A DNA stretch of 64,000 bases from Acidobacteriota bacterium (GTDB taxonomy: Bacteria > Acidobacteriota > Thermoanaerobaculia > Gp7-AA8), in NCBI GenBank assembly GCA_019244185.1, contig JAFATB010000006.1:416001-480000 (forward strand), given 5' to 3'. The stretch's first letter is position 1, and every line of letters begins with the position of its first letter. Under the pieces are notes generated by a model that was given only the letters and a program-made list of their open reading frames with translations, had not been told where the DNA came from and searched no databases. This document shows, piece after piece, positions 22,545-63,088 of this stretch. The translations under genes and the position numbers were made by a program.

Positions 22545-22629
22545 GGTTGATTCCTGCCATGTGTAGCTCATTGGGTAGAGCGCAGGACTGATAATCCTGG
22601 GGTAGCGGGTTCGAATCCCGCCACAACCA
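22545..22629 (+). tRNA. tRNA-Ile(GAT)-like RNA with defective or interrupted acceptor stem
   Basis: D arm GCTC/GAGC, anticodon arm CAGGA-CTGATAA-TCCTG, T arm GCGGG-TTCGAAT-CCCGC; 3' strand CACAACC pairs only 4 bp with the adjacent 5' strand; no encoded CCA. Confidence 0.75.
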
Positions 22630-59697: not shown

Positions 59698-60405
59698 ATG
59701 CGAAAGAGTCTTGTGGTCTCGGTGTTTGCTTTGTTGTTGGTCACCGCGTCGGCGTTTGCGGGAGAGAAGCCGGCGATCGGCGTCGCTGAATTCAAGAACG
59801 AAACCTCCGCCTCCTGGTGGTATTCGGACGCGGCGAGCGATCTCGCCGGCATGCTGACGAACGAGCTCGCGAGCACGGGCAAGTTCAAGATCGTCGAGCG
59901 CGCGAAGCTCGGCCCCGTCCTCGACGAGCAGGATCTCGCCGAGTCCGGCCGCATCAAGAAGTCGACCGGCGCGAAGATCGGCAAGCTCACGGGCGCGAAG
60001 TACCTCGTGTTTGCGACGGTCAGCGCGTTCGACACGAAGAGCCGCGGCACCGGCGGCGCGCTGAGCTTCCGCGGCATCAGCGTCGGCGGCAAGAAAGAGG
60101 ACGCGTACATCGCCGTCGATCTCCGCGTCGTGGATACGACGACGGGCGAAGTCGAATACACGCGCACGGTCGAAGGCCGCGCGGCGAGCTACGGCATGTC
60201 GGGCGGCGTCTACCGCGGCGGCTTCGGCGGCGAGCTCGGAAAGTACGAGAACACGCCGACCGGCAAGGCGATCCGCGCCGTCATCGTCGAGATCAGCGAC
60301 TACCTCGCCTGCGCGATGGTCGAGCAGGGCAGCTGCATGGACGAGTACAACGCGAAGGAATCGAGCCGTCGCGAGAAGACCAAGAAAGCGATCAAGCTGG
60401 ACTAG
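59698..60405 (+). CDS. CsgG/HfaB family secreted protein
   Basis: Signal peptide; IGVAEF, FKIVERAKL..VLDEQ, VDLRVVDTTTGEV. Confidence 0.85.
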   Translation: MRKSLVVSVFALLLVTASAFAGEKPAIGVAEFKNETSASWWYSDAASDLAGMLTNELASTGKFKIVERAKLGPVLDEQDLAESGRIKKSTGAKIGKLTGAKYLVFATVSAFDTKSRGTGGALSFRGISVGGKKEDAYIAVDLRVVDTTTGEVEYTRTVEGRAASYGMSGGVYRGGFGGELGKYENTPTGKAIRAVIVEISDYLACAMVEQGSCMDEYNAKESSRREKTKKAIKLD

Positions 60406-60661: not shown

Positions 60662-61538
60662 CTACGCAACTGCGGCAAGCGTCCACAAATCGAGCGCGAG
60701 AAGGTCACTCGCCTTCCAAACATAGTCCGTCAGGCCAGCGGCCATCGCCGGAGTCTTCCCACCGAGCGACTTGTGCTTGCGGCAGAAGTTGTAGAAGACG
60801 ACGGTGATGGCGAGCATGAAGACGTGGTTGTCGAGCTTCTTCGAGAAGCCATTCGTGAGGCGCGTGAAGCGGCGGTTCTGCATCCGCAGCGTGAGGTTCC
60901 ACCGCTCCATGAACGACGTGGATATGTGCTTCGTGATCGGCATCCCGAACGTCGGTCGCTTCTCTACGGCCAGCAGGCGGCCGGGCGAGTATCTACTGGC
61001 CGCACTCCTCGGACTTGTTCCGGTGACCGGCTTACTGTTCGCGTACGTCTTCACCACCTCGGCATGATCGGCCTCGCCGTAGCGGAAGTTCTTCACGATG
61101 GCTTCGAGGTACACGGATAGGCCGTCGGTCGAAATCTGAAGGCGCATCGTCGTGCGGCATCTTCAGATCGCGAATCAGAGCGTCGGCCGCTTCCTGATTC
61201 CGGTCACTCACCATCCACGAGATGAGGAGCTTCGAGTCGGCGTCAAGCGCCGTCCACGTCCAGAGCGAGCCGTAACCTTCCTTGCCCTTCAGATCGGCCG
61301 GAACGTTCTTCTCCTTCGCGTAGCAGAACGACCAGACCTCATCACACTGCACGCGCAGCGTCGGCAGGTAGCGCACCTGAGCGTCATGGAAGCGAAGGCA
61401 CGCTTGACCAATCTCGCGGATGAGACTCAGCACCGTCATCTTCGCGGCGCCGGTCATGCGGCAGGTCGAGGCAATGGAGTTGCCTTCGATGAGGGCGGTC
61501 AGGATCTGCGCGCGCTTCGCAGGTGACAGCTTGTTCAT
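60662..61538 (-). pseudogene. IS1-family DDE transposase, frameshift near 61156
   Basis: HTH N-terminus, QCDEVW, ISTDG, STSFMERWNLTLR...RFTRLTNGFSKK; deleting one C in ATGCCGCACG fuses the two ORFs. Confidence 0.85.
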
Positions 61539-61544
61539 AACTAC

Positions 61545-61587
61545 AATATATGCTTGAGGGGTCAAGCTGTCAATGCTTGAGGGGTCA
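61545..61587 (-). promoter_or_regulatory. Leaderless transposase promoter with 15-bp direct repeats
   Basis: TTGACA-N17-TATATT-N6-ATG; ATGCTTGAGGGGTCA at 61550 and 61573. Confidence 0.75.
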
Positions 61588-61719
61588 CGCTACGCTATGT
61601 AACATGCCGGTCGGACGCGGATTACCGAAAGTAAGTTTGGTGTTGACCTGACGCGTAGACGGACCTACATTGTTACTGATAGCACCATGCTATCGGAGTC
61701 TTTTCTCAGTATCAAAAAG

Positions 61720-61793: not shown

Positions 61794-61807
61794 ATAGGTG
61801 GTAAAGG

Positions 61808-61878
61808 TGGAGGTAGAGGGAATCGAACCCTCGGCCAGGGGTCCAAAGTCCGTAGCCGGGAAACCATCCACTACCCCC
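61808..61878 (-). tRNA. Atypical tRNA-like gene, anticodon TTG (Gln), G3:U70
   Basis: GGGGGTA/TACCTCC, mini D arm GGA-TGGTT-TCC, loop CTTTGGA, GAGGG-TTCGATT-CCCTC, A73. Confidence 0.7.
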
Positions 61879-61899
61879 ACGTTAGGGTTATCTGGCGCC

Positions 61900-62472
61900 T
61901 CACTCGTTAGCAGCGGGTGAGGCGTTTTCTTCTTCGTGCTCTTCATCATCATTGGCGGGGTCGTTGACTGCGCTAACGACTTCCGCTGCACCGCCCGCGG
62001 CACGCTTCTTCGTGCCCTTGCCACGCTTCAGGTGCGGGTAGAACTCGACCAAGCCGTAGTGTTCGTCAGGAAGTACCGCGACCTCGTACGTTGATCGCGC
62101 CATACGGACCTTCAGTTCACTCTCGTTGTCCACCTTGCAACCACCGCGACGAATGGCTTCCACAATCTCGCGGAACGGGCGCGCTTGCCCCCGTCGCTTC
62201 AGGTATCGCTTGGCGGCGTCGAGCCCGTCGAGGCCGTAATACTCGTCGGGCCGGATCGAGTAGCCTGACGCCCCGCTATCGGCAGTCGGCGCGTCCAAAC
62301 CGAAGAGTTGCGCGAGCGTACTCTTCGGTTGACCGACGATCTCCTCCAGTGCGTTAAGACCCTGCTGAAGCCGGAGCACTTCTGCCATGCTGGGGTCGGC
62401 TTTCATAGCCATAACTTTCTCGTCGATCTTCCTCTTTAGCTCCTCAGCGGCAGCCAAAATTGCATCACTCAT
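61900..62472 (-). CDS. Coiled-coil plus winged-helix-like protein with acidic tail
   Basis: GAGGA RBS; AAKRYLKRRGQARPFREIVEAIRRGG...YGLVEFY pattern. Confidence 0.7.
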   Translation of the reverse strand: MSDAILAAAEELKRKIDEKVMAMKADPSMAEVLRLQQGLNALEEIVGQPKSTLAQLFGLDAPTADSGASGYSIRPDEYYGLDGLDAAKRYLKRRGQARPFREIVEAIRRGGCKVDNESELKVRMARSTYEVAVLPDEHYGLVEFYPHLKRGKGTKKRAAGGAAEVVSAVNDPANDDEEHEEENASPAANE

Positions 62473-62491: not shown

Positions 62492-62526
62492 AACCCAAAT
62501 GTAGGCTCGCGATTTTGGGTTGTCAA
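62492..62526 (-). promoter_or_regulatory. Sigma70 promoter with inverted-repeat operator
   Basis: TTGACA-N17-TACATT; AACCCAAA...TTTGGGTT overlaps it. Confidence 0.7.
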
Positions 62527-62821: not shown

Positions 62822-63088
62822 TTATTTCCGACGCTTTTGCCAACGGGCGGTAGCGGCTTTCTTTGCAATCTCGGAGCGTTTTTTCGCGCTCAACGCAACG
62901 GCCCGAGCCGGCCCGCCGATCCTCCCGCCGATACGCCCGAACGCGGCGGCGGCAGCCCGCATCTCGTCCGTGATCTCGACCGGCGGCTCTTCCTCGGATT
63001 TCTCCGCGATCGTCTCCATGATACGGACGGCAGCCTGCGCCTCATCCTCGCGCTTCTTCCTCGGCTTCGTCCTTGACCCCTTAGGCAT
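62822..63088 (-). CDS. Small basic IS-associated protein
   Basis: AAAAFGRIGGRIGGPARAVALSAKKRSEIAKKAATARW; preceded by TATACT-N6-ATG. Confidence 0.85.
   Translation of the reverse strand: MPKGSRTKPRKKREDEAQAAVRIMETIAEKSEEEPPVEITDEMRAAAAAFGRIGGRIGGPARAVALSAKKRSEIAKKAATARWQKRRK

Follow-up and report, generated by a model that had tools for sequence, protein, structure and literature searches.

What kind of RNA is encoded at positions 61808-61878 of a 64,000-nucleotide (nt) stretch of an Acidobacteriota genome (assembly GCA_019244185.1, contig JAFATB010000006.1, positions 416,001 to 480,000), referred to below as the window? The original prediction, which was made from the sequence alone, described a tRNA-like RNA with a glutamine anticodon, the identity of an alanine tRNA and remodelled arms. 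Comparison with other genomes pointed to an authentic compact alanine-acceptor tRNA, one of a widespread family that is carried on mobile DNA, and on balance we consider this reading probable, with considerable room for doubt. The observation behind the original prediction was confirmed; its interpretation as a whole was partly supported.

Structure of the compact tRNA

The gene was found to be 71 nt long and tRNA-shaped, read from 61878 down to 61808 and then followed by C-C-T. Its acceptor stem has seven perfect base pairs (bp) (GGGGGTA/TACCTCC), which include G1:C72, G2:C71 and, as third pair, G3:U70; the discriminator is A73. The gene lies on the minus strand. Its acceptor end is as had been predicted, and the predicted canonical T arm (GAGGG/TTCGATT/CCCTC) was also present, with all five pairs intact. 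The acceptor stem is followed by G-T and then by the small D arm that had been proposed, a hairpin of 3 bp (GGA/TCC) with a 5-nt loop (TGGTT). A single C separates this hairpin from a long imperfect helix, in which element positions 22-29 pair with 39-46 around one internal C.C; this is the elongated anticodon arm of the original prediction. The helix closes the loop region ACTTTGGAC, which contains CTTTGGA; the A and C at the two ends of this region are unable to pair in the standard way. As predicted, there is no variable loop, with zero nt between the long helix and the T stem. The geometric anticodon is indeed UUG, both in a relaxed ARAGORN search and in the alignment with the nearest relatives.

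A family of compact tRNAs in bacteria and phages

Searches with the sequence itself were not productive. When 201 nt were compared by BLAST with 60 related genomes, the compact tRNA was unmatched and the matches fell on the neighbouring tRNA and on a 29-nt T-arm stretch (genome G002); a phage-database search with 1 kb around the compact tRNA gave no match, and a first, narrow sequence pattern gave none in species-representative genomes or in viral contigs. A covariance model was built from this one sequence and the structure given in the original prediction, and was used to scan 150 genomes of the same class. It recovered, in 5 of the 149 related genomes, five more RNAs that share this architecture and measure 72-74 nt (G050, 76.5 bits; G046, 46.1 bits; G479, 40.6 bits; G034, 36.6 bits; G042, 36.5 bits), and the remaining matches were ordinary tRNAs of 76-77 nt. 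On its own model the RNA of the window scored 108.6 bits and its nearest relatives 70-76 bits.

From these six sequences a broader family pattern was derived. It had at least 119 matches in species-representative genomes and also matched 14 viral contigs, with members of about 70 nt. Among the matches listed, those from bacteria came from Patescibacteria, Peregrinibacteria, Acidobacteriota, Gemmatimonadota, Actinomycetes, Planctomycetota, Verrucomicrobia, Cyanobacteria and several proteobacterial classes. The window itself contained one match, at 61808-61878, and 100 shuffled versions contained none. All seven acceptor pairs were present in 118 elements, 115 of them unique; the elements of loci L088 and L113 are identical in sequence to those of G479 and G050 and were not counted as further independent cases. 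The window RNA has every defining feature of the family: an acceptor stem that begins GGGG and contains G3:U70, G8, a short hairpin with a TGGT loop, a stem of 7-9 bp, a 7-nt loop, a junction of 0-2 nt, a GGGTTYRAYTCCC T arm and A73.

Base pairing was conserved across the family. On the model-fitted alignment of 101 hits, 96.8% of the paired cells could pair, compared to 69.7% after shuffling and at most 69.1% when the partners were slid; the cells of the D stem were 92% paired, and each of the seven counted pairs of the long stem was changed on both sides in 6-47 sequences. Because hits aligned to a model are fitted to that model, the count was repeated after the 11 closest members had been aligned with MAFFT alone; in this alignment 88.8% of the cells were paired compared to 71.7% after shuffling. 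These results support covariation in every helix, including the "anticodon" stem of 8-9 bp, which argues that the long stem is real and that the short stem and variable loop drawn by ARAGORN are not the conserved fold. As judged from these alignments, the long arm and the small D arm are supported as selected features. The original prediction had taken two mismatches in the anticodon stem as grounds for doubt about the arm. Both recur in close relatives: 6 of the 11 sequences of the MAFFT alignment lack pairing at 27:41, and the A and C that flank the 7-nt loop are the commonest combination at those positions (17 of 54 sequences).

Second copies of the compact tRNA were seen within single loci, namely L050, L094 and L098 (two copies about 25 nt apart), and tandem or nearby second copies also in L063, L096, L078 and L080.

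Alanine identity

Alanyl-tRNA synthetase (AlaRS) identifies tRNA-Ala by G3:U70 and A73, whatever the anticodon. The window RNA carries both marks, with G3:U70 placed in an acceptor stem of 7 bp. Both were kept in all nine covariance-model homologues of this shape, that is, G050, G046, G479, G034 and G042 together with the second copies in L063, L096, L080 and L078. The larger set of pattern matches is uninformative in this respect, since the pattern itself fixes GGGG...CTCCA. The original prediction was to be given up if G3:U70 proved not to be conserved among homologues and the RNA proved uncharged and unstable; the homologue comparison was run, and on the part that sequences can test the pair was conserved. 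According to a report on allo-tRNAs, members with G3:U70 insert alanine in Escherichia coli (PMC5389517).

Further evidence came from large tRNA arrays, in which ARAGORN with default settings called the family element as a tRNA-Ala(UGC) of 70-72 nt. The element was the only tRNA-Ala among the 22 tRNAs of a viral contig (L179) and in two actinobacterial arrays of 32 and 20 tRNAs (L093 and L134); in a second viral contig (L176, 36 tRNAs) it was accompanied by a tRNA-Ala(GGC). The loop of the L179 element is TTTGCAA, closed directly by G-C pairs, and matches the anticodon-loop sequence of tRNA-Ala. Since the UGC members are the sole tRNA-Ala of such arrays, the most likely origin of the family is a functional tRNA-Ala of mobile elements that had become compacted. 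Such an origin agrees with the need of AlaRS for the acceptor stem alone.

The anticodon loop

Loops were placed by model-based alignment, and 54 sequences had a loop region of 9 nt. Outside the arrays the frame of the loop was largely kept, with a pyrimidine at position 32 in 48 of 54 sequences, U at position 33 in 48 and A at position 38 in 50; the letters in the middle varied widely. In the nearest relatives of the window RNA (L118, L111, L100, L154, L052, G050 and the viral locus L170), the sequence of the arm is kept around GGACTT-NN-GACCCC and just two middle letters of the loop change. The resulting geometric anticodons are UUG (in the window), UAG, UGA and UUA, all with G at position 37.

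Comparison with standard models and known RNAs

The window RNA was compared to the classes that it might be assigned to. A canonical tRNA (RF00005), or tRNA-Gln(UUG), was rejected: the sequence falls below the gathering score, is missed by ARAGORN at default settings, and lacks a D stem of 4 bp with a loop of 7-11 nt, an anticodon stem of 5 bp and a variable loop of 4-5 nt. ARAGORN called a tRNA-Gln(ttg) when relaxed (-ps80), with a weak D stem, an anticodon stem of 5 bp with two mismatches and a variable loop of 4 nt. Glutamine identity in the acceptor end consists of a weak 1:72 pair and G73. The window RNA has G1:C72 and A73, and the host tRNA-Gln genes start with T and end in ...AGCCA, so that glutamine identity at this end was also rejected.

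A full transfer-messenger RNA (tmRNA) was excluded in the same manner. The score on the Rfam tmRNA model (RF00023) was 39.6 bits (E = 3.5e-14), below the gathering score of 47, and the alignment covers just the two ends of the tRNA-like domain (TLD), with 26 nt between them in place of 328, so that there is no mRNA-like domain, tag frame or pseudoknot; the tmRNA mode of ARAGORN gave nothing at the compact tRNA. The true tmRNA of the host genome scores 177 bits on the same model. The RNA is not a copy of the ends of the host ssrA gene, from which its acceptor stem and D region differ, nor a decayed host tRNA-Gln, tRNA-Ser or tRNA-Ala, to which its similarity is limited to the generic T arm. The host has its own normal set of these genes, comprising a tmRNA with the tag ANSDFALAA, tRNA-Gln (UUG and CUG), tRNA-Ala and a 94-nt tRNA-Ser(GCU), and this is the only compact tRNA in its genome. 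In the host tmRNA gene (G000:C14:136172-136519, L001), the discriminator is followed by TCT and not by CCA.

With canonical tRNA-Ala the window RNA shares the acceptor stem of 7 bp with G1:C72, G2:C71 and G3:U70, A73 and the standard T arm. It differs in lacking the D stem of 4 bp with its loop of 8 nt and the variable loop, in having an anticodon stem of 8-9 rather than 5 bp, and in its anticodon, which is UUG here and variable across the family. A "TLD only" tmRNA is on record from mycobacteriophage DS6A, and a similar molecule strongly inhibited tmRNA in E. coli, perhaps by titrating SmpB (PMC4131195, PMC11915505). The DS6A element was located at JN698994 28478-28560 (83 nt). Like this element and the tmRNAs without a coding sequence of jakobid mitochondria and some plastids, the window RNA is short, has an alanine-type acceptor and T arm and has no tag frame; with the DS6A element it also shares a mobile-element context and an Rfam tmRNA match confined to the ends. 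In contrast, DS6A has an unpaired, tmRNA-like D region and an irregular inner part without an anticodon-like loop, and assignment to this type was rejected on the grounds that the window family has a conserved D hairpin (92% of cells paired) and a C/U-U...A loop frame.

The allo-tRNAs or "polycistrons of irregular tRNAs" of Acidobacteria (Mukai et al. 2017, PMC5389517) are similar in being non-canonical, in having diverse anticodons and in some cases G3:U70, in standing in tandem with other irregular tRNAs, and in adjoining transposon and toxin-antitoxin genes; a Rosmer pair is present in the G012 and G034 islets described below. Their acceptor/T branch is 8/4 or 9/3, their D stem is long and capped by a tetraloop, and their variable arm is also long. 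The window RNA has a 7/5 branch, a D stem of 3 bp and no variable arm, and was not assigned to them, although the irregular 7/5 tRNAs in the supplement of PMC5389517 may include the present shape. A milder remodelling in the same direction is seen in tRNA-Pyl and in mammalian mitochondrial tRNA-Ser(UCN) (PMC7609411). In these tRNAs a single nt links the acceptor stem to the D stem, the D loop is small, the anticodon stem is lengthened and the variable region is shortened. Their anticodon stem of 6 bp and variable loop of 3 nt compare with 8-9 bp and 0-2 nt here, and their identities and hosts are other. The window RNA is thus set apart from canonical tRNA-Gln, tmRNA, the DS6A-type TLD and allo-tRNA, and is filed among the non-canonical tRNAs. 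A literature search, with most subscription journals outside it, found no description of the body plan or of a link to IS1/IS1595 transposases.

Association with transposase genes and other tRNAs

A transposase gene was found within 2.5 kb of the compact tRNA in 35 of 118 loci, of the IS1595-like type in 23 and the IS1-like type in 12, and in 14 loci one end of a full-length transposase gene lies no more than 150 nt from the 3' end of the compact tRNA. Three genomes contain several IS1595-type genes and one compact tRNA each; the copies that adjoin the compact tRNA are the most alike across these genomes, with 43-44% identity compared to 36-38% for those without it. In loci L057, L105, L174 and L144, conservation extends over a block that starts with a promoter and leader about 125-200 nt upstream of the compact tRNA, takes in the tRNA and ends shortly after the stop codon of the transposase gene. 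No convincing terminal inverted repeats were found around the compact tRNA and transposase gene in the eight loci inspected. In about a dozen loci a further tRNA lies no more than 30 nt away; several of these neighbours are irregular, being 87-95 nt long and having stop or odd anticodons, and are similar to allo-tRNAs that have been published.

The leader of these four loci is structured and about 130 nt long. It begins with the Shine-Dalgarno-like GGAGGA, followed by ATGAGAAGAG, and contains two hairpins whose pairing is kept through two-sided changes between loci. It may be a structured RNA or a tiny open reading frame (ORF) fused upstream of the tRNA and transposase gene.

Proposed function and alternative explanations

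In the reading as a compact alanine-acceptor tRNA, a standard top half, made up of a normal T arm and the seven-pair acceptor stem that carries G3:U70 and A73, is joined to a rebuilt bottom half. In the latter, the acceptor stem leads into a single nucleotide, G8, a D hairpin of 3 bp keeps in its 5-nt loop the GG that meets the T loop, one helix of 8-9 bp replaces both the D stem and the anticodon stem, and the helix ends, with no variable loop, in a 7-nt loop that shows UUG in a C32/U33...A38-like frame. On this reading the gene would be transcribed from the promoter of the upstream ORF190 jointly with the next, odd tRNA; the RNA would be released by RNase P and 3' processing, and its 3' end completed by the CCA-adding enzyme. 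AlaRS would then charge it with alanine, as this enzyme reads the acceptor stem and not the anticodon, and, should the ribosome accept the RNA, alanine would be placed at CAA and CAG codons. Decoding of CAA and CAG as alanine by the window RNA is possible.

Several observations weigh against this reading. At default settings ARAGORN made no call on the compact tRNA, at gathering scores Rfam listed nothing over 61808-61878, and the best Rfam match in an E-value scan was tmRNA rather than tRNA. The zero-nt junction between the long stem and the T stem may correspond to the P2a arrangement of tmRNA rather than to a tRNA. The terminal A of CCA is not encoded, although the host tRNAs whose sequences were printed do encode CCA, and the fold energy of the single sequence is ordinary (z = -1.28, equalled by 23 of 200 shuffles). 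At position 37, unlike in decoding tRNAs, the family most often has C (26 of 54 sequences), with G and A in 14 each. In the syntenic copy of G479 the T arm is identical and the acceptor pair 7:66 is changed from A-U to G-C, but the D arm and the anticodon arm differ, including the loop (TTACCCA), so that no particular anticodon is conserved at this locus; selection is visible there, on the strength of this comparison, on the top half and the shape of the arm and not on a particular anticodon. Finally, the cassette may be decaying, since the neighbouring transposase gene carries a frameshift.

This last point bears on an alternative in which the gene is a relic, brought in by a mobile element, unexpressed or useless here and kept only because it is young. 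The low-GC islet in which it lies (0.60 compared to 0.64-0.69), the frameshift in a transposase gene whose orthologues are intact, the unencoded terminal A, the lack of a listed promoter-like site of its own, its absence by BLAST from 60 of 60 relatives and the G012 islet, which keeps the odd tRNA and the insertion sequence (IS) without the compact tRNA, are all consistent with such a history. However, both non-Watson-Crick positions recur in close relatives, which is not what random damage would look like, all seven acceptor and five T-stem pairs are intact, and the comparison with G479 shows an identical T arm and an acceptor pair changed on both sides; a relic is unlikely, though it is the strongest of the alternatives. 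A transposase-tied role outside translation, with the RNA or its gene and an IS1/IS1595-type transposase forming a two-gene unit, is slightly less probable again. In this case the RNA might be a cofactor or a regulator, or might serve as an RNase P/Z processing signal by which the mRNA of the transposase is uncoupled from transcription that comes from outside; the gene, for its part, might be the preferred landing site. We give the same low weight to the proposal that it is a dedicated RNA partner of a subfamily of IS1/IS1595 DDE transposases in a two-gene unit kept across phyla; here it would regulate or insulate transposase expression through tRNA processing, would be a cofactor, or would be an alanine-inserting, mistranslating "toxic tRNA", whose anticodon would drift freely because AlaRS does not read it. 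The frequency and closeness of the transposase genes, the greater likeness of the tRNA-adjoining IS1595-type copies and the conserved promoter-to-stop block argue for a link of this kind. Against it stand the 83 of 118 loci with no such transposase within 2.5 kb, the occurrence of the IS1595-like gene in both orientations and sometimes upstream, the failure to find terminal inverted repeats enclosing the compact tRNA, a second IS1-like copy in the host genome without a compact tRNA, and the clear resemblance of the array members to translation tRNAs.

The original prediction had also allowed for a structural mimic, and the tmRNA match raises the further alternative of a TLD mimic. This would be a decoy for SmpB and perhaps EF-Tu, chargeable or not, which would dampen trans-translation, as has been proposed for the DS6A element, and whose long helix would be P2a, closed by a loop. 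Four of five homologue loci scanned gave the same type of tmRNA match (19.7-36.1 bits), confined like that of the window RNA to the TLD ends, the long stem meets the T stem without a linker, and the DS6A element scored 43.2 bits on the tmRNA model and 26.4 on the compact-tRNA model. Yet the ordinary host tRNA-Ala(GGC) also reached 32.6 bits on the tmRNA model, so the match mostly reflects an alanine-type acceptor and T arm. The D hairpin and the 7-nt loop with an anticodon frame, both absent from the DS6A element, the role of the UGC members as the sole tRNA-Ala of arrays and an acceptor stem unlike that of the host ssrA also speak against a decoy, which we regard as the least probable of these explanations.

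Under the reading as an alanine-acceptor tRNA, the family, which spans many phyla and phages and is partly missed by standard gene finders and Rfam thresholds, would have a body plan more extreme than that of tRNA-Pyl. Because AlaRS ignores the anticodon, alanine-acceptor tRNAs with a changed anticodon are candidates for missense or nonsense suppressors. If these RNAs decode, mistranslation with alanine or read-through of stop codons would have a mobile and widespread source, and the family would offer ready-made compact scaffolds for genetic-code engineering; if not, the IS1/IS1595 link would point to an undescribed use of the tRNA shape by transposable elements or, alternatively, the family would represent a class of tmRNA/SmpB decoys broader than the single phage example on record.

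Neighbourhood of the gene

The compact tRNA lies in an islet of about 3.8 kb with low G+C content, bordered by a CsgG-family gene (59698-60405) and by core genes such as LexA and the valyl-tRNA synthetase ValRS. On the minus strand the order is ORF88, ORF190 with a promoter-like site, a hairpin over the stop codon of ORF190, the compact tRNA, a 14-nt spacer, a second tRNA with a GCU anticodon, a T-run, a promoter-like site and a split IS1-like transposase gene (Table 1).

Table 1. Positions in the window of the compact tRNA, its parts and the neighbouring features
Feature	Position	Strand	Basis or remark
Compact tRNA-like gene, position 1 to discriminator A73	61808-61878	minus	anatomy, homologues, covariation
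Acceptor 5' strand	61872-61878	minus	
D hairpin	61859-61869	minus	
Long stem	61850-61857 with 61833-61840	minus	
Loop region	61841-61849	minus	
T arm	61816-61832	minus	
Acceptor 3' strand	61809-61815	minus	
Discriminator A73	61808	minus	
3' trailer C-C-T	61805-61807	minus	CC encoded, terminal A of CCA not
Second tRNA, 75 nt, class-I size, GCU anticodon	61719-61793	minus	ARAGORN; Rfam tRNA 60.7 bits
ORF190, 190 amino acids (aa), co-directional, upstream of compact tRNA	61900-62472	minus	
Promoter-like site TTGACA-17 nt-TACATT, upstream of ORF190	62498-62526	minus	
15-bp hairpin over ORF190 stop codon, partly in coding sequence	61894-61926		related hairpin at same place in G479
IS1-like transposase gene in two frames (177 aa, 161 aa)	60662-61565	minus	frameshift near 61150
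Near-consensus promoter-like site TTGACA-17 nt-TATATT, before transposase gene	61545-61573	minus	within twice-repeated motif
ORF88, small basic protein, recurs beside family members	62822-63088	minus	neighbour cluster 6, 5/118 loci

The tRNA(GCU) begins 14 nt past the end of the compact tRNA, in a genome that also has the normal 94-nt tRNA-Ser(GCU). Seryl-tRNA synthetase (SerRS) relies for charging on a long variable arm. This tRNA does not have one, so that charging by SerRS is unlikely; its C35, U36 and A73, together with an A of the D loop, look arginine-like. In L011 (G012) and in L025/L088, homologues are present whose anticodon is ACU. The T loop of the tRNA(GCU), TTGGATC, has G where C56 normally stands.

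The site upstream of ORF190 is the nearest listed candidate promoter for ORF190 and both tRNA genes, and no promoter-like site was listed between ORF190 and the compact tRNA. On the plus strand a T-run comes after the hairpin at the stop codon of ORF190, and read in this direction the hairpin has the score of an intrinsic terminator that faces the tRNA genes. The ORF190 protein matched no Pfam, PHROG, NCBIfam or PADLOC family, and a protein-atlas search gave only a HARE-HTH lead. With a profile made from four homologues, ORF190 homologues were found upstream of family members in 5 of 118 loci. Another lies upstream of a family member in G189, and 7 of 401 genomes of the phylum had a match. ORF190 was accordingly rejected as a universal protein partner, and no protein partner was universal.

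The frameshift in the transposase gene is not accompanied by a slippery run; the orthologues elsewhere, among them those in G012, G050 and G479, are single ORFs of 287-304 aa. A motif of about 16 nt (TTGACCCCTCAAGCAT-like) occurs twice at 61523-61592, overlapping the promoter-like site of the transposase gene, and is arranged likewise in G012, G050 and G479; it looks like an operator. The second, diverged IS1-like copy of the host genome is located at G000:C6:199153-199903. Between it and a helix-turn-helix (HTH) gene lies a near-perfect inverted repeat of about 120 nt (G000:C6:198883-199006).

The islet was found at the same chromosomal place in G479, which belongs to a different genus, in the order ORF82, ORF182, hairpin, compact tRNA, a 73-nt tRNA(ACU) and an intact transposase gene. 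In G012, of the same genus, it is inverted, with the odd tRNA(ACU) and the IS present and the compact tRNA absent. A Rosmer toxin-antitoxin pair (PADLOC RmrT and RmrA) was detected in the G012 islet (L046, 5440-7295), and near-identical Rosmer ORFs were seen in the G034 locus (L044).

A prophage attachment-site remnant was considered for this region and rejected. No tyrosine integrase was found near C6:477-500 kb (13 matches genome-wide), the tRNA region had no direct repeat elsewhere, and the right flank consists of the host genes LexA, ValRS, BirA, CoaX, GGT and RpiA.

Elsewhere in the window, a tRNA-Ile(GAT)-like sequence on the plus strand at 22560-22625 scored 57.9 bits on the Rfam tRNA model, covering model positions 4-67 only, and was missed by ARAGORN. 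The bases upstream of it do not complete an acceptor stem of 7 bp. Possibly this is a tRNA that was truncated, or else a remnant of an integration event.

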